A DNA stretch of 32,000 bases. It comes from Archaeoglobus fulgidus DSM 4304. Its GTDB lineage: Archaea > Halobacteriota > Archaeoglobi > Archaeoglobales > Archaeoglobaceae. Both the position numbers and the translations under genes were made by a program. The DNA is taken from positions 90,001 to 122,000 of the forward strand of contig NC_000917.1 in assembly GCF_000008665.1 (NCBI RefSeq), given 5' to 3'. Position 1 is the first letter of the stretch, and each line of letters begins with the position of its first letter. Shown piece after piece: positions 9,023 through 27,524 of the stretch. The notes below the pieces were generated by a model. That model was given only the letters and a program-made list of their open reading frames with translations, ran no database searches and was not told the DNA's origin.

Positions 9023-10397
<1,375 letters not shown>

Positions 10398-20638: not shown

Positions 20639-21843
20639 CACCAATTTTTTGGCCCTGTTTCATCATACTTGGAATTTCACCTCCACCATACAACCCTTCC
20701 CAACCATCTCACCAATAAACGACTCATACCTCTCCCTCTCAACATATCTCCTCAGCAGCAAATTCAGCAGGTTCTTTGCCCCTCTCTCGCTCCATGACAT
20801 CCACTTGTTCTTCATTCTCTTTGCTATTTCACCCATAAGCCTCCATCCAGTTATTGTGCCAGGGAATTGTTATCCCCTCAAGCTTCTTGTATGCAAACAA
20901 AAGAATGTTCTCCATATGCCTTTTAAAGAACCTCGAAACCCTCCTTTTTCTTCCATTTCCTTTACGAATTCATTCAGAGCCTTCTCTGTTTTCTTAATTC
21001 TGCTCTCTAAATCTGGCTTCTCTATAGAGTTCTTAAGCCTGAGCAGGATTCCCTTAACTTCGTTCACGTACTGTTTTCTTGTTTCGAGATCAACTCCGTG
21101 CTGCCAGAGTTTGTAGTTAACCTCTCTCCAGATGTGAATGAGATCTATCTGCCTTTCTTCAAAACAGCTGAGATCTCTGTCAGCATCTCCTACGATTGTT
21201 GCTTTAACGTCGTACTCTCCTTTCATTTCCCTATAGCTCTCGTTAATCCCAACGATAACGCTTTTCCCAGCGATAACCTTTACATCGAGCTTACCTTTAC
21301 CCTGGGCATGGAGCTTAGTACTGTCAGCAGATACAAAGTCATCGTATTCGAATTCCGATTCTGCTTCCATTCCAAGCTCCTGCACCCTCCTCCATATCGT
21401 GAGATGGGATGGAGATTCTGTCATTCTCTGCAGTCTCTGTCTTGAATCCCTGTAGCTCATGGATAAGGCGTAATCGACAGCTATTGCAGCTATGTCTGGC
21501 TGATAAGTTCTTTTTCCATCGAATTCTACAAGGCTGTACAATGGGCAGAAAGTTCTGCCGGTCGATTTTGTCTTTGACCCTGCTAACTTTAAAGGCGGTC
21601 TTACCGAGCTGCGTTACAATTGTTCTCTTCTCTCTGCTGTGTTTATAGTAATCGTTTTTGCCATATCCTTTTCCACAGATTGAAGAGACAAGAATGTTGT
21701 CTATTTCCCCAAAACCTTTCCTAAAATTACAGCTTCAATTTCTTTTAAAGCATTCTGAGTATGTCCTTGTTTGTTAGCTTCCTCACGTGACAATCTTGTT
21801 GGGATGTAAAGTTATTTCGGGATACTACAGCACCAATTTTTTT
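20639..21843 (-). mobile_element. Insertion sequence of ~1.2 kb with a decayed transposase, inserted between the two triple-module paralogs
   Basis: Transposase-like coding sequence fills the whole interval. A direct repeat CACCAATTTTTT occurs at 20639-20650 and 21831-21842, possibly an 8-bp target-site duplication (AATTTTTT) plus chance. The terminal inverted repeats are weak (GGCCCTGTTTCATC vs GGTGCTGTAGTATC). The size is compatible with the ~1.2-kb IS class reported for A. fulgidus, but this is from memory and unverified. Confidence 0.65.
20663..21793 (-). pseudogene. IS transposase (ISLre2/UPF0236-like by eye) disrupted by several frame changes
   Basis: The longest ORF (20870-21541) is only 223 aa, has a TTG start and ends at a TAA. 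Protein-like continuations lie in other frames. Upstream is ...ICGKGYGKNDYYKHSREKRTIVTQLGKTAFKVSRVKDK. Downstream are ...RHMENILLFAYKKLEGITIPWHNNWMEAYG and GEIAKRMKNKWMSWSERGAKNLLNLLLRRYVERERYESF...*. Confidence 0.6.
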
Positions 21844-21868: not shown

Positions 21869-21890
21869 TGTTTCCTAATTGTGGGGTAGC

Positions 21891-23209
21891 ATGAAAGCCG
21901 AGATGCTGTACTGGGTGGACAGGGTAGGAGGCAAAGTCGAGAAGCTTGAAGTCGAGCTCAAACCTTTCGGATACAAAATGGCGCCCGTTACGCAGTGGAA
22001 GACTCTGATAGCGGATGGAGATGCAGAGGTCGAGAGGGGCAAACCTACGATTATAAAGGTGAAAACCATAGAAATCCCGGAGAACACGATTGTAGGCCCT
22101 CTGAACATAATGCGCCACGCCCTTGGAGTCGTTGCGGATGTTGTGGAGTGCGGAATTCCCGGCAGGGTTGAGGAGGACAAGTGCGTAAGCCAGGTTCTCT
22201 TCGTTCCGATTGAGGACGGTGTGGTAAAGGATGGGGACCTCGTTGGCGTTCTGAAGGTCTTCTTCATACGCACCGGATTGCTTTCCCGGATACCGCTATT
22301 AAAGCCGCCAAAGGTTGAGCTGAGGGAGGAGATAACCGAGGCGAACATAACTTGGAGGGATAACGGGAACGTTTACAGGGAGAAAATCAGGACGAAGGTC
22401 TTCGGATACACGAGGAGCCACGTCGGTGTGTGGGAGCTTCTCGTTGCGGATGAAACGGTGAGGGTGAAGAGGGGTGACGTGCTGAGAATCAGAATAAAGG
22501 AGGTCAGACTACCACCTAACACCGTTGTGGTGCCTCTGTCGATAATGAGGAACGCTACGGAACCGTGCTTGATGTCGTGCAGCTTGGCAAGCCGAGCAGA
22601 GTTGAGGACGAGAAGAGAATCCAGCAGGCGGTGTTTCTTGCAGTGGAGGACGGAGTGATAGAGGAAGGGGACCTGATTGGAGTGATAAACGTTTACTTCG
22701 TCGGAGTTGATAGGCTTGAGAACGTCCCGATTGAACTCGAAACCAGAGAGGTGAACATAGTTTACAGGACGGGTGGGGGGATAGTGAGAAAGAAGCTGAG
22801 TGTTGACCCCTTCGGCTACAGAAGGTCTGCCAACGCGTCTTGGGAAGTGATAATAGCCGACGAGAGGAAGGAAGTAAGATACGGGGAGCCCGAAATTATA
22901 AAGATTAAGAAGATAAAGATTCCGAAGAACACGATAACCTACCCAATGTGCATAATGAGGCACGCCTACGGGTCCTTCGTGGACCTCTACTCAGACCTTC
23001 CACCCCGAAAGGTTGAAGAGGACAGATTCGTCAATTATGCGGTCTTCCTCCCAATCGCCGACGGTGAGGTGAATAGGGGGGAGATTCTTGGAATTATAAA
23101 CCTCTATGCGGTCGAGGTTGGAAGCCTGACCAAGGTAAAGCAGTGGATGGATAGGTGGCTGGACGAGATGGGTGAGGCGTTTGCGGAATCCGACTGGCCG
23201 ATGTGGTAG
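21891..23209 (+). pseudogene. Second triple-module repeat protein with a DWPMW tail, interrupted by a 1-nt frameshift near 22556/22557
   Basis: The ORF-track pieces 21879-22658 and 22565-23209 together are collinear with the 19308-20633 protein. At ...IMRNA the frame is lost: aacgct-acggaacc in this copy versus aacgcctttgggacg in the first. Restoring one base gives NA[Y/F]GTVLDVVQLGKPSRVE... Confidence 0.7.
22437..22528 (+). repeat. 92-nt tract identical to 19860-19951
   Basis: See the partner feature. The tract ends ~28 nt upstream of the frameshift site. Confidence 0.85.
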
Positions 23210-23620
23210 CTACTCTCCGATTGCGCCGAGTATCAGTGGTCTGACTGCACCGAAGAGAAGCTCTGCAACGACGAGTATGGTTAAAATACGGTAAATTCCC
23301 TTCATTTTTGGCAGAATTGAGAGCAGTGCAAAGACGGGCGCTAAGGCGAGGAAGAAAAGCGAGAAAACTGCAACATTGTCGGGATGGGCGATGTACAGAA
23401 ACTCGGAGTAGCTTTCCATCTCTTTTCCAACATTCACCTTCCAGAACTCCGATGCCGGCAGGTGCCAGGTTTCAACCACCCTGTCTGGCTCAACGAACGG
23501 GTCGATGTCGAGCAGATACATTGCAGAGGACACCACGAGCAGAATCAACCCCGCGAGGGTGAAGTACCTTATAACCTTTGCAAATCGAATACACTCCTCA
23601 CCCACTTCAACATTCATCAT
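23210..23620 (-). CDS. Small membrane protein, DUF1634-like, partner of the TauE permease
   Basis: Starting at MMNVEVGEECIRFAKVIRYFTLAGLILLVV... gives 136 aa. This start overlaps the stop of the upstream TauE gene in an ATGA arrangement. The 66-codon Arg/Cys-rich extension in the ORF track looks spurious. Confidence 0.5.
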   Translation of the reverse strand: MMNVEVGEECIRFAKVIRYFTLAGLILLVVSSAMYLLDIDPFVEPDRVVETWHLPASEFWKVNVGKEMESYSEFLYIAHPDNVAVFSLFFLALAPVFALLSILPKMKGIYRILTILVVAELLFGAVRPLILGAIGE

Positions 23621-24486
23621 ATCACCCCCAGACCAGCAAGCCCCTTCTCTATGTCGAGGATTGCGGCGAATAGCATGATTCCGAGCACAACCAGCCTTAT
23701 CACCCTCGGCCTGACCTTCTCTGCAATCATCGCCCCTATCCTTGCTCCGAGAGTCACGCCGAAAACCGATGGAACAACTATGAGCGGCAGAACGGCACCT
23801 CTGGCAATGTAGACCCACATTGCAGCCGCGTCGTTGAGGGTTATTATGAGCATGCTCGTCGATACTGCAACCCTAAGCGGAGCGCCCATCAGCAGGTTCA
23901 GCACTGGCACATTTGCCCAGCCCGCACCGAGACCAAACATTCCCGCAACCAGGCCAACACCGGCAAAGGCGGGGAGGGAGTAGGGCAGTCTTGTGAGCCT
24001 GTATTCAATCACCTCATCCCTCGATGGCTCGTACCACCTTCCGCTCAAGTCGAGCTTTGCGGAGATTGAGTCCACACTGTCAACTTCTGGAAACTCCACC
24101 CTCTTGCTCTTCACCATCACGGCGAAGATGAAGAAGAGAGATATGCCGAGGGCAATGGTTATGTAGTGCTTTCCCTCTGGCATCTCATTGGTTATCCAAA
24201 GCCCCAGAACGCTTCCGGCAATCGATGAAGCTATTGAAACTGTCGCAATAACGATCGAAGCTCTAAGATTTGCGAGACCCTTCTCAAGAAGCCTTGGTGA
24301 GGAAGAGAGGGCTGAGGTAAGTGCTATTGCCAGCCCGGCACCTCTCACAAAATCGATGTTGAATGGAAAGAAGGCTGTGGTGAGGGGGACGAACAACACA
24401 CCCCCACCCACTCCCGAAATGGGGGCGATAATCCCGATCAGGAACGTGAACGCAAAAAGCAAAACCATCCACATAACGTACTCCAT
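23617..24486 (-). CDS. TauE/SafE-family anion permease (sulfite-exporter family)
   Basis: The 289-aa polytopic membrane protein has GVGGGVLFVPL and a second half-repeat GLGAGWANVPVL. Confidence 0.8.
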   Translation of the reverse strand: MEYVMWMVLLFAFTFLIGIIAPISGVGGGVLFVPLTTAFFPFNIDFVRGAGLAIALTSALSSSPRLLEKGLANLRASIVIATVSIASSIAGSVLGLWITNEMPEGKHYITIALGISLFFIFAVMVKSKRVEFPEVDSVDSISAKLDLSGRWYEPSRDEVIEYRLTRLPYSLPAFAGVGLVAGMFGLGAGWANVPVLNLLMGAPLRVAVSTSMLIITLNDAAAMWVYIARGAVLPLIVVPSVFGVTLGARIGAMIAEKVRPRVIRLVVLGIMLFAAILDIEKGLAGLGVI

Positions 24487-24629: not shown

Positions 24630-25133
24630 ATGAAATCACATGAAAGGGGAAGGGTTATCCTTGTAATCGACGACACGGATTGCGGGAGGGTTGCAGCCGA
24701 GAGGCTTGTTTTTATGGCAAGAGCCGGTTTCAGGGGAGATGTGTTCGTAGTTTTCGGCAAAGACATTGAAATATCCCCAATAGCGTCCTACGAGAAGGAG
24801 ATGAAGATATACACCTCTCTGAGAGTTAAGGCTTCGAAGTTCGTGGAGTTCTACAGGGAGAGATTGGAGGAGGCAGGGCTTGAAGTGAAGCAGGTCAAGA
24901 TAATCCTCGGAAACGTATCGGAGGAGGTGCTGAGGCTCGAAAAGCTGCTGAACCCCGACCTAATAGTTTTCGGAATGGAGAAAAGAGGCTTTCTGAAAAG
25001 GTTGTTGAGGGGGGACCCTTACAAGGAGATAATCTACGAAACCAAAGCACCGGTGATGGTCTGCAAGGCAGGATACGAAAGAAAAGACGTTGATTATGAA
25101 AAAATTAGGTGTGCAAAGTGCGTTATGGGCTGA
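24630..25133 (+). CDS. Universal stress protein (USP)-like protein
   Basis: The 167-aa ORF has VILVIDDTD... and LIVFGMEKRGFLKRLLRGDPYKEIIYETKAPVMVCK, which follows the USP alpha/beta pattern. Confidence 0.65.
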   Translation: MKSHERGRVILVIDDTDCGRVAAERLVFMARAGFRGDVFVVFGKDIEISPIASYEKEMKIYTSLRVKASKFVEFYRERLEEAGLEVKQVKIILGNVSEEVLRLEKLLNPDLIVFGMEKRGFLKRLLRGDPYKEIIYETKAPVMVCKAGYERKDVDYEKIRCAKCVMG

Positions 25134-25214
25134 CTACCAGTAGGGCCACTCTGTTTTCTCAAAGACCTCTCCGAAGTACTCCATCTGCGCATCAAAAAGC
25201 TCTTTAAGCCTCAT
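25134..25214 (-). CDS. 26-codon micro-ORF encoding a free-standing copy of the EWPxW tail (MRLKELFDAQMEYFGEVFEKTEWPYW)
   Basis: This is my own translation and is not in the ORF track. The ATG overlaps the TGA of the long TauE gene (gcATGAgg). GGGTG and GGAG SD-like elements lie upstream. The ORF exactly fills the convergent gap to the USP stop codon. It aligns residue-for-residue with the C-terminal tails at 20556-20633, 23132-23209 and 27462-27524. Confidence 0.55.
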   Translation of the reverse strand: MRLKELFDAQMEYFGEVFEKTEWPYW

Positions 25215-26638
25215 GCTCCTACACCCGCCTTAACCTCTGAAGCCCACGCGTCTATACCCTCATACCCGCTCTGGGCTATTGATTTGGCGAGGTCATCTCT
25301 CAGCGCTGAAACCTTGATGAGGTCGAGGAATGCGTGTGCAAAGCTCCCGTGGATGAAGCTCCAGTAGATGGCAAGCAGTATAACTCCGATTGACAGCACC
25401 ACCCCTGTCAGAGGGTCGGCGTGGGGTATTGAGGTGACGAAGTTCGGCCACCATTCAGGGTCGCGGAAGAGCCAGTAGTAGTTTGCGAGTGTCCAGACGC
25501 CGAATATTCCGAGCCTCTTGAGGTTGCCAGACCCGGTGTGGGCCGAGGCTTCAATAGCCCTGTCAAGCAATCCGAGCTTCTTCAGCTTCATCCTAACCTT
25601 CATCATCGGATATCCGACGAGTGGAGTTACGGAAAGCATCGCAACAGCCATTACCGGAAGCACGAGTGAGTTCAGGGTTTCTACCACTCCCTCATCCAGC
25701 TCAATCCACCCAAGCTCTGCCAGGTAGCCCGGAACGGCCAGAGCCCTGCTCAGCGTTACGAGGAGCATCACTGTCGCCATCGCCATCTTTATGTAGTACT
25801 GCCTGACGTAGGTCGTTCCGACAGCTCCAATCTGCACCCCTATGAGCGACGTGGCAAGAATGAGGGTTGTGAGCCTGAAATCAACAGCTCCAAGCAAGTA
25901 AATCCACGTGAATGTACCGGTAGAACCCATGACAAAGGCTATTCCCAGCTCTGTCCCACTCGCAACGGCACTGGAAGCGCCAATAAGGTATATCATGGAA
26001 GGAACGCCTATAAAACCACCAACGGCAATCGTTGCAGCGAGGAACCCTGTACCAAATCCGAGGGGAATCGTGAGCCATGCTGAATGCGTTCTTCCGACAA
26101 CGTCGAACCTTATCCTCGGAGGAAGCCTAAATTTCTCTTCAAGCTTCTTTGGCAGGGTTGATTCGGTGTCGGATATGCCGAGCTTTTTCGCCCTCACCAC
26201 GTCTCTCAAAAGAAGCAGGGATACTGCAGGCAAAACAACCAAGAATGCAATACTGACATAAAGGTTTGTTCCCGTTTCTCCGAGAGCCTCATAAATCTGC
26301 TTCTGAACCTGAATTCCGACCTGAACACCTGCTATTGCAGAAACGGCCATAATAACTGCAAGCTTCGGGTCAAGCTGCCTGAGCTTGTATCTCCTGTAGG
26401 CGCCTATCATTGCTTTAGGGAACTTGTGGCACATGTTTGATGCTACTGCTATCGGCCCCGGAGTGCCGATTGACATCATACCGGGAGTGAGGACGAAAGC
26501 GCCTCCGCTGCCGATGAAGCCGCTCAGCATTCCACCGAAGAAACCGAGGGCAAGGAGAAAAATCGCTTCAAAGGGCCCAATGTGGATGAACATGTCGGGC
26601 GTCATTGCACTTCCGCCCGTCGCAAAGCTTCCACCCAT
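25211..26638 (-). CDS. Long TauE/SafE-family permease with a C-terminal membrane extension (DUF1634-like by eye)
   Basis: The 475-aa ORF is preceded by the SD GGAGGTG. It has GSGGAFVLTPGM and IAVGGFIGVPSM half-repeats. The extra ~150-aa C-terminal region has additional transmembrane segments (HADPLTGVVLSIGVILLAIYW). Confidence 0.75.
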   Translation of the reverse strand: MGGSFATGGSAMTPDMFIHIGPFEAIFLLALGFFGGMLSGFIGSGGAFVLTPGMMSIGTPGPIAVASNMCHKFPKAMIGAYRRYKLRQLDPKLAVIMAVSAIAGVQVGIQVQKQIYEALGETGTNLYVSIAFLVVLPAVSLLLLRDVVRAKKLGISDTESTLPKKLEEKFRLPPRIRFDVVGRTHSAWLTIPLGFGTGFLAATIAVGGFIGVPSMIYLIGASSAVASGTELGIAFVMGSTGTFTWIYLLGAVDFRLTTLILATSLIGVQIGAVGTTYVRQYYIKMAMATVMLLVTLSRALAVPGYLAELGWIELDEGVVETLNSLVLPVMAVAMLSVTPLVGYPMMKVRMKLKKLGLLDRAIEASAHTGSGNLKRLGIFGVWTLANYYWLFRDPEWWPNFVTSIPHADPLTGVVLSIGVILLAIYWSFIHGSFAHAFLDLIKVSALRDDLAKSIAQSGYEGIDAWASEVKAGVGA

Positions 26639-26870: not shown

Positions 26871-26915
26871 TTGTTTCAGAAAACCTTTTATGCTCGCAGC
26901 AATAATAAAAGTTCA

Positions 26916-27524
26916 ATGCCGAAGTTCAAGAGATTGTCCGTTGCAGTTGATGATTCTATTGTGGAAATCCTTGAAAAGCTAACGGCAGTGGAAAATAAGA
27001 CAGTATCCGACATTATCAGAGAATCGATTATAACTTATGCCGAACTTGCAGAGGGTGGGGCGAGAATATCTGATCTCAAGCAGTACGAGGACATCCTCGA
27101 AAGAAGGGACCACGTAATGGTGGACCTCGAAATGTGGATTGCCCTCCTCGACCTCGTAAACGCGAAGGCCGACGAAGAATTCTGGAAGCTCATAGAGAAT
27201 GTTGGTTACGAGCTAGGCGTGGAGATGAAGCTTAAAGGCTTCGGCCTCGACGAGCTGCTCGAGCATATGAGAATCAAAAACCTGCTCAACTACAGCAGAG
27301 AGGGTGGAATTTACATTCTGACGCTGGTTTCGAGAAGTGCTACGAACATGGTCATGAGGATGTTGAGAGGAGCATTCAGGGCAATGCAGATTGAAGCGGA
27401 GGTTATTCCGGGAGTCAGAAAAGTGGTCATAGTGGACAAGAAGGCCCTCAAAGATAAGGACGTGCAGAAGTGGATAGCAGAGATGGGAAGGACCTTTGAG
27501 GGGTCCGACTGGCCAATGTGGTGA
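26916..27524 (+). CDS. Ribbon-helix-helix (CopG/Arc-like) DNA-binding protein with an unknown middle domain and a C-terminal DWPMW tail
   Basis: From the ATG at 26916 the N-terminus is MPKFKRLSVAVDDSIVEILEKLTAVENKTVSDIIRESIITYAELAE, which follows the RHH pattern. The protein ends VQKWIAEMGRTFEGSDWPMW*. The ORF track starts at the TTG at 26871. Confidence 0.75.
   Translation: MPKFKRLSVAVDDSIVEILEKLTAVENKTVSDIIRESIITYAELAEGGARISDLKQYEDILERRDHVMVDLEMWIALLDLVNAKADEEFWKLIENVGYELGVEMKLKGFGLDELLEHMRIKNLLNYSREGGIYILTLVSRSATNMVMRMLRGAFRAMQIEAEVIPGVRKVVIVDKKALKDKDVQKWIAEMGRTFEGSDWPMW

Follow-up and report, generated by a model that had tools for sequence, protein, structure and literature searches.

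AF_0126 is a 26-codon open reading frame (ORF) of Archaeoglobus fulgidus DSM 4304 located at 25134-25214 on the minus strand of the window, by which we mean the whole 32,000-nucleotide stretch analysed here (contig NC_000917.1, positions 90,001 to 122,000), directly behind the gene for a long TauE/SafE permease. Judged from the way its sequence is conserved, it is a genuine small gene that is selected at the protein level and starts independently. The encoded peptide is a free-standing copy of a C-terminal module ending in Trp-Pro-x-Trp (WPxW), which also terminates DUF22 proteins, an RHH protein and sister permeases. We propose, with moderate confidence, that AF_0126 is a split-off permease tail supplied in trans, the WPxW end of which docks to the same partner as the other tails.

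AF_0126 and its conservation behind the long TauE permease

On the minus strand the ORF begins ATG AGG CTT, ends TGG CCC TAC TGG TAG (26 codons plus TAG) and translates to MRLKELFDAQMEYFGEVFEKTEWPYW*. The 475-aa permease in front of it (AF_0127 type, 25211-26638, minus strand; AAB91106.1 / WP_010877639.1) matches Pfam PF01925 with an E-value of 5e-36 (124.9 bits, gathering cut-off 32.6) and ends ...GIDAWASEVKAGVGA, without a WPxW cap. The AF_0126 ATG (25214-25212) shares bases with the permease TGA (25213-25211) in an ATGA stop/start overlap (25211-25214, minus strand), so that the micro-ORF is read in the -1 frame. At its other end, the TAG (25136-25134) is directly adjacent to the stop codon (25131-25133) of a convergent universal stress protein (Usp) gene. 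Two elements resembling a ribosome-binding site precede the start on the same strand: a Shine-Dalgarno (SD)-like GGGTG at 25222-25226, 7 nt 5' of the ATG, whose bases also code permease residues, and GGAG at 25216-25219. The coordinates, the translation, the overlap, the abutting stops and both elements had been described in the original prediction, and all were reproduced from the sequence. The prediction had also called the ORF unannotated, which is not the case: the product is identical to AAB91107.1 and Swiss-Prot O30111 of A. fulgidus DSM 4304 ("predicted coding region", "Uncharacterized protein AF_0126"), and databases have listed the ORF since the GenBank record of 1997. The permease has a WP_ accession and none is listed for AF_0126 in the collection searched, consistent with the absence of the peptide from RefSeq.

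Related archaeal loci (designated by L-numbers) were fetched via the permease and not via the micro-ORF, so that the presence of the latter was scored without bias. An ORF of 26-33 codons was taken as AF_0126-type when its start lay no more than 11 nt ahead of, or 2 nt beyond, the stop codon of a same-strand gene for a long TauE permease (about 475 aa). Such an ORF lies directly 3' of the permease in eight of the nine lineages with a permease at least 78% identical, namely the window, L091 (MKVKEFFESQMDYFGEVFEKTEWPYW), L081/L086 (MIQSIIRFFESQIEYFGEVFEKTEWPYW), L082 (MIRQIIQFFEGQMEYFGEVFEKTEWPYW), L087 (MIKQLIQFFECHLEYFGEVFEKTGWPYW), L083-85 (MLLKLFKFLNSQIDYFGEVFAKTEWPYW), L102 (MSFSKFIYFIKNYPDYMGEQFAKTPWPLW) and L001 (MKSAFSVISLIQFILNFPDYMGHSFLYTPWPYW). 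It follows the permease in none of the 17 loci fetched at 75% permease identity or less, one of which (L010) carries the tail fused to the permease instead. The orthologous micro-ORFs end [EGP]WP[YL]W-stop; the longer ending pattern is Y-[FM]-G-x-x-F-x-[KY]-T-x-W-P-[YL]-W-stop, of which L102 and L001 carry the variant PDYMGxxFxxTPWPxW.

A conserved 15-codon core, EYFGEVFEKTEWPYW (25137-25181, minus strand), comprises the end of an amphipathic helix and the [DE]WPxW cap. Its variable columns number 0, 2 and 10 at codon positions 1, 2 and 3 in six ungapped sequences (P=5e-4), and its pairwise nonsynonymous divergence (dN) is 0-0.08 at a synonymous divergence (dS) that ranges from large to saturated (roughly 1 or above for most pairs; NG86 method). 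Over codons 2-26 the variable columns are 9/6/19 and dN/dS is about 0.1-0.3 in the computable pairs. Even the stop codon differs by lineage, being TAG, TAA or TGA. What is conserved, as far as these comparisons indicate, is the peptide sequence and not the DNA. The two marks of a real gene named in the original prediction, conservation of the locus in relatives and a bias towards synonymous substitution, are thus both present.

These patterns bear on the proposal that AF_0126 is a non-functional relic, either a decaying partial 3' duplication or frameshifted permease tail, or an ORF of which translation alone matters, through mRNA stability or interference with convergent Usp transcription. 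Partial duplication does yield tail-only ORFs, as in L002 and L004, where a mini-ORF is DNA-identical to the 3' end of its neighbour, and the close lineage L103 does without the micro-ORF. A relic, however, would not be expected to keep its amino acids while synonymous sites are largely saturated, and the window contains no DNA-level repeat of AF_0126. Moreover, the junction matches no Rfam family, its RNA fold shows nothing unusual (z -0.97), and the micro-ORF is conserved in L083 though the Usp gene is absent there; together with the missing DNA repeat, these results exclude an RNA element or the gene overlap as the explanation. We regard a relic of either kind as very improbable. A 26-residue "hypothetical protein" of 1997 becomes in this way a well-supported small gene, and it exemplifies the genes that length thresholds remove.

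The junction with the permease takes three forms. The ATGA overlap, with the micro-ORF in the -1 frame, occurs in six of the eight lineages (window, L091, L081/86, L082, L087 and L001); in L083 the micro-ORF begins 8 nt before the permease TAA, giving an 11-nt overlap and a +1 frame, and in L102 it begins 1 nt beyond the TAA, leaving a 1-nt spacer. SD-like elements sit 6-10 nt 5' of the start in most lineages, with a GGTG core at the equivalent position in five of seven compared orthologues, GGAGG in L001 and GGAGAGGTGA in L102. The translational coupling to the permease that had been suggested earlier would suit this arrangement well. An alternative is that the true product is a tail-bearing permease, made by programmed frameshifting or hidden by a sequencing error, for which the overlap of the ORFs and the existence of fused paralogues (see below) could be cited. 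The split, however, is seen in eight independent assemblies; no slippery X XXY YYZ heptamer occurs at the junction GGGTGTAGGAGCATGA; every micro-ORF is equipped with an ATG and an SD-like element of its own; and the micro-ORF codes the complete module, N-terminal helix turns included, and not just the end that the permease lacks. A conserved frameshift is excluded by the three geometries with their differing offsets, and the alternative as a whole is extremely improbable. The junction geometry, read from sequence, fits independent initiation coupled to permease termination and argues against both programmed frameshifting and assembly error. Downstream, a T6 tract (25099-25104, minus strand), read from the sequence about 30 nt past the AF_0126 stop, is a possible transcription stop of archaeal type for a joint permease/micro-ORF transcript; the window sequence has no T-tract between the two ORFs. 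A scan for bacterial-type promoters and terminators was set aside, the host being an archaeon.

The WPxW module as a shared C-terminus

Translated in all six frames, the window contains just four WPxW motifs, all of them preceded by D or E and immediately followed by a stop (0.035 WPxW-stop occurrences are expected in the shuffled window), and in 269 kb of related archaeal loci the motif precedes a stop in 39 of 44 copies (P about 1e-46). AF_0126 ends EWPYW-stop, again with an acidic residue before the cap. The larger proteins of the window that carry the tail are a triple-DUF22 protein (19299-20633, plus strand; PF01629, E 6e-125), ending ...RQWLDNWLTEMGRTFDEGDWPLW / ...EMGRTFDEGDWPLW, the product of a second triple-DUF22 gene (21879-23209, plus strand), ending ...DRWLDEMGEAFAESDWPMW / ...EMGEAFAESDWPMW, and an RHH/CopG-type protein (26871-27524, plus strand; PF01402) encoded divergently from the permease and ending ...QKWIAEMGRTFEGSDWPMW / ...EMGRTFEGSDWPMW. 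The RHH tail is conserved in the orthologues of L081, L082, L083 and L091, and the RHH protein of L100 is without it.

The micro-ORF product aligns gap-free with the final 26 residues of the tails found on DUF22, RHH and fused TauE proteins. Counted from the C-terminus, every aligned sequence has F(-9), W(-4), P(-3) and W(-1), and conservation extends to Gly(-12) and to the hydrophobic character of -16 and -13; AF_0126 has M, F and F at -16, -13 and -9 and G at -12. To avoid circularity, a hidden Markov model (HMM) was built from 27 large-protein tails only and scored against 4,235 stop-to-stop six-frame ORFs of at least 15 aa from the window and nine loci. Large-protein tails occupy ranks 1-18, followed by a 46-aa mini-ORF of L083 (E 2e-6) and then by all six AF_0126-type ORFs (E 1e-4 to 6e-3), with no unrelated ORF above them. 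The scores are modest, that of AF_0126 included (E=0.0015, 16 bits), though six independent orthologues reach them; the variant micro-ORF of L001 escapes the model. The claim that AF_0126 is a free-standing copy of the tail of larger proteins was therefore borne out, at E=0.0015 among 4,235 ORFs and with no false positive ranked higher. A Pfam scan of the peptides, AF_0126 included, returned no family. Database searches with the tail profile, which do not map the spread of the tail among large proteins, gave three proteins by word index and six by exhaustive HMMER, three of the latter spurious; AF_0126 was identified.

The tails have a net charge of -1 to -3, a hydrophobic moment of 0.42-0.63 and three or four aromatic residues. 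For AF_0126 the moment is 0.46, the net charge -3 and the mean hydrophobicity 0.01, with charged residues throughout and no membrane-spanning segment. The AlphaFold model of the window DUF22 protein (mean predicted local confidence, pLDDT, 91.9; predicted template-modelling score, pTM, 0.91) has three all-beta domains and a confident helix at 415-434, and its terminal heptapeptide EGDWPLW falls below a pLDDT of 50. In the model of a fused permease (pLDDT 87.7) the module prolongs the last helix (447-472) and the cap has a pLDDT of about 67. The tail is thus predicted to be an acidic amphipathic helix with a [DE]WPxW cap, the cap being exposed on DUF22 proteins; the tails in the two models behave as an exposed linear motif would.

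An exposed acidic, aromatic C-terminus on unrelated proteins suggests a docking peptide. Shared C-terminal docking peptides include the D-D-D-I-P-F tail of bacterial single-stranded DNA-binding protein (SSB), the HbYX motif of proteasomal ATPases and the cargo-loading peptides of encapsulins. The WPxW tails resemble them in having an acidic stretch with an aromatic residue or Pro at the C-terminus, in being exposed in the models and in occurring on unrelated proteins encoded near one another, and differ in that the motif is distinct. Of the genes called in the related loci none pointed to a shell, a proteasome or an SSB client, and the Pfam assignments for L081-L085 and L098-L103 include no encapsulin or microcompartment shell family.

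The same physical features could be read as those of a membrane-interface anchor, in which the Trp-rich amphipathic tail lies in the plane of the membrane and tethers DUF22 and RHH proteins near permeases, while the free peptide acts on the membrane or on the permease-lipid interface. The aromatic residues and the hydrophobic moment of the helix would suit such a role, as would the fused forms, in which a membrane protein ends with the tail, and the association of the tail with TauE loci. Known membrane-targeting helices, however, are basic, and these tails are acidic, with an acidic residue right beside the cap; the DUF22 model, moreover, places the helix confidently within the predicted fold. 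We consider an anchor improbable.

DUF22 itself yielded 144 matches, and all those with a source name are Archaeoglobaceae, to which the family appears to be confined. All members share the helix start K-x-K-x-W-[LY]-x-x-W near the C-terminus. The DWPxW ending is found in 21 of 120 members, only in the subfamily nearest A. fulgidus, and endings among the relatives include DWP[FI], ...EGLQ and ...ILYE; the loci of the ...EGLQ and ...ILYE types show no tail sharing. Six DUF22 proteins (P0168, P0169, P0171, P0177, P0184 and P0214) have ends among DWPI, DWPF, DWPIG, DWPMG and DWPFGSKKISK, and such D-W-P endings, without the final Trp or with an extension, may be intermediate states of the cap. In fold searches with single DUF22 domains (model m06b4490a5f9a) the only matches to recur were weak ones to dUTPase/dCTP-deaminase barrels, with E above 0.08 and a probability of 0.85 at most, and a pseudo-trimeric dUTPase-like arrangement is possible; sequence searches of the PDB with DUF22 and RHH found nothing.

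Tail-only ORFs are not limited to the AF_0126 type. Three loci that have no AF_0126-type ORF encode a single-domain DUF22 protein ending ...AISIDPEVFIKSDWPYLWKK, then a tail-only ORF of 45-50 aa ending ...RIDKAISIDPEVFIKSDWPYLWKK, then a TauE gene (DUF22 plus mini-ORF at L002 6941-7735, L004 5403-6240 and L088 2109-2939). Within each genome the mini-ORF and DUF22 copies are DNA-identical over the last 14-20 codons, and between genomes about 90% of synonymous sites differ (pS about 0.9), which together point to gene conversion or repeated re-duplication. A third type is P0123, a 46-aa ORF of L083 (7499-7645, minus strand; MLAITKKQKGGEKIYDVKGEFNPKKWIKNWIRDIENVFDEAEWPFW, ending ...KKWIKNWIRDIENVFDEAEWPFW) that is also present in L084 and L085. 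It lies just 3' of a triple-DUF22 gene, convergent with the AF_0126 orthologue and at the position taken by Usp in other loci, and it resembles a DUF22 3' end, last beta-strand included. Tail-only ORFs thus arose at least three times.

A probable permease tail supplied in trans

In five of 120 permease homologues the tail is fused in frame at the C-terminus. Four of these, P0009 (...EEWIDSMSDKFEKERWPLW), P0011 (...EAWIDYMEREFGKDKWPVW), P0013 (...EEWIDMMSDKFEKGKWPIW) and P0047 (...EKWIDSVGKKIAGKREWPLW), share the ending ...W-I-D-x-M-x-x-x-F-x-K-x-x-WPxW, their tails reading WIDMMSDKFEKGKWPIW; the first three are 76-79% identical to the AF_0126-linked permease and P0047 is more distant. The pattern FEK-x-x-WPxW is common to AF_0126 and the fused permeases, and in L081 and L082 a fused paralogue shares the contig with the split form. 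A detached permease C-terminus had been one of the options offered at the outset, beside a competitor or adaptor for the tail receptor, and the in-frame fusion in close paralogues lends the detached C-terminus support and makes a split permease the likeliest reading. The separation was not a simple cut, since the split permease keeps a degenerate helix start (W-A-S-E-V-K-A-G...) and the micro-ORF codes the complete module; the tail-coding segment may, for instance, have been duplicated locally.

According to this proposal, AF_0126 (26 aa; orthologues 26-33 aa) would be translated where the long TauE gene ends, through coupling or re-initiation. The AF_0127-type permease would have lost the cap from its own C-terminus and would regain it in trans from a peptide translated separately from the same mRNA. 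The exposed WPxW end would then act as a docking peptide for a partner that also recognises the DUF22, RHH and fused TauE tails. The strongest specific argument combines the sister permeases, which carry the module covalently, with L102, where the micro-ORF is the sole WPxW ORF within 10 kb and so tracks the permease and not DUF22 or RHH. Translation in vivo, association with the permease, the docking role of the tail and the identity of the partner are what we infer from these arrangements.

Several observations weigh against the proposal. A crude contrast for permease residues that track tail association gave no signal, with one column compared with two in the control. WPxW-type DUF22 genes occur without a long TauE gene within 8 kb in L100 and L101, so the permease need not be the common partner. 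The micro-ORF is absent from L103, whose permease is also at least 78% identical, and is therefore dispensable there. The selection test uses six alignable sequences that are phylogenetically related, and the literature yielded no expression, ribosome-profiling or proteomic evidence for AF_0126.

A further possibility is a decoy or competitor, a free peptide that mimics the DUF22 and RHH tails at a shared receptor. Like a eukaryotic microProtein, it would let permease production titrate or release either the RHH regulator or DUF22 proteins. In its favour, the module is found on a DNA-binding RHH protein encoded divergently from the permease/micro-ORF operon and on the DUF22 proteins of the same locus; tail-only mini-ORFs arose independently beside tail-bearing genes, of single-DUF22 type in L002, L004 and L088 and of triple-DUF22 type in L083; and the cap is predicted from the models to be exposed. 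On the other side, the micro-ORF of L102 persists with no other WPxW protein within 10 kb, and the L100 RHH has no tail. We think a decoy unlikely on the whole, and such a role would be compatible with a split permease. A broader version of the idea, to which we give an equally small chance, makes [DE]WPxW the address label of a lineage-specific docking system in which one receptor, the long TauE permease or the DUF22 body, binds the DUF22, RHH and permease caps, with AF_0126, the 46-aa ORF of L083 and the 45-50-aa ORFs of L002, L004 and L088 as competitive regulators. If true, this would be an archaeal counterpart of the eukaryotic microProteins, coupling transporter synthesis to the release of a transcription factor.

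Radical S-adenosylmethionine (SAM) genes near several DUF22 genes raise one more alternative, namely that the Trp cap is cross-linked or otherwise modified, as in precursors of ribosomally synthesized and post-translationally modified peptides. Such a gene (17875-18837 in the window) adjoins a DUF22 gene of WPxW type here as well as in L083 and L100; the L100 enzyme (9318-10340, minus strand) is of the SPASM-type family TIGR04084 (AF0577 type, 351 bits). The enzyme of the window and L083, however, is activase-like, falls below every family cut-off, has housekeeping synteny (hemD, CN-hydrolase) and belongs to a different family from that of L100; most tail carriers, furthermore, are large proteins and not precursor peptides. 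The radical-SAM genes that adjoin DUF22 genes are of two types and none adjoins a micro-ORF, and we give peptide modification scarcely any credence. The SPASM gene of L100 sits between the WPxW-type DUF22 gene and the tail-less RHH gene.

Turning back to a permease tail supplied in trans, there are partial parallels among known systems. A small protein of Methanosarcina mazei inhibits ammonium transport (PMC10714827). By analogy, AF_0126 resembles the small proteins of transporters in being very short, lying in a transporter operon, falling below gene-calling thresholds and plausibly binding the transporter. In E. coli, KdpF, AcrZ, MgtS and CydX are encoded with membrane transporters and act on them, each as a single hydrophobic transmembrane helix. 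AF_0126 is acidic and amphipathic and is homologous to the tails of unrelated soluble proteins as well as of sister permeases; having no transmembrane helix, it is not of the KdpF/AcrZ type. Gene fission into fragments that reassemble is a general phenomenon, and here too fused and split close paralogues occur in the same genomes, with the split piece directly 3' and coupled. The differences are that AF_0126 is only 26 aa long and is a full copy of a module used by other families, and that the permease keeps a remnant of the helix. Eukaryotic microProteins such as Id and LITTLE ZIPPER comprise no more than the interaction domain of larger proteins and work as competitors. AF_0126 is likewise a small stand-alone module of interaction type without the other domains of the larger proteins, in a setting of repeated partial duplication; it differs in its archaeal origin and because the module, some 25 aa at a protein terminus, is no folded domain, and for AF_0126 competition would be hypothetical. 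Judged by these likenesses, AF_0126 would work most like the transporter small proteins, split-gene fragments and eukaryotic microProteins.

Literature searches on DUF22, AF0126/AF0127, WPxW and Archaeoglobus small proteins found nothing relevant, and for this reason four features appear to be undescribed: the evidence for a genuine gene under selection, the homology of its product to a tail that three unrelated families share, the fact that fused and split forms coexist, and the recurrence of tail-only ORFs. A short C-terminal module, it would seem, can move between proteins as dissimilar as DUF22 (all-beta), RHH (DNA-binding) and a membrane permease, and can also be a gene product in its own right. 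A synthetic 26-mer with two tryptophans offers a cheap handle on the role of DUF22 and the long TauE permease in sulfate-reducing archaea. The scope is narrow, being that of the close relatives of A. fulgidus, and for these we infer the function.

Other genes of the locus

The Usp gene that converges on AF_0126 (24630-25133, plus strand; PF00582) is syntenic in L081 and L082. A natural fusion of a long TauE permease with a universal stress protein domain exists in P0060 (614 aa; PF01925 plus PF00582), suggesting that the permease and the convergent Usp gene of the window are functionally linked.

The second triple-DUF22 gene, which contains the repeat families D1-D5, is read in two overlapping frames, 21879-22658 and 22565-23209. 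Both DUF22 genes of the related locus L081 are intact, and the split copy of the window is a frameshifted pseudogene unless the sequence is in error. A truncated transposase of the ISH6 family (20870-21541, minus strand) separates the two DUF22 genes of the window, which are adjacent in L081; it scores 112 bits against a cut-off of 240 and covers profile positions 103-333 of 414.

A short TauE permease of 289 aa (23617-24486, minus strand) is encoded between the second DUF22 gene and Usp, and its stop overlaps the next ORF, which encodes a membrane protein of about 135 aa (23210-23620, minus strand) at the position of AF1633-family (PF27423) genes in L081 and L082. The two form a second coupled pair of a permease and a small partner in the locus.

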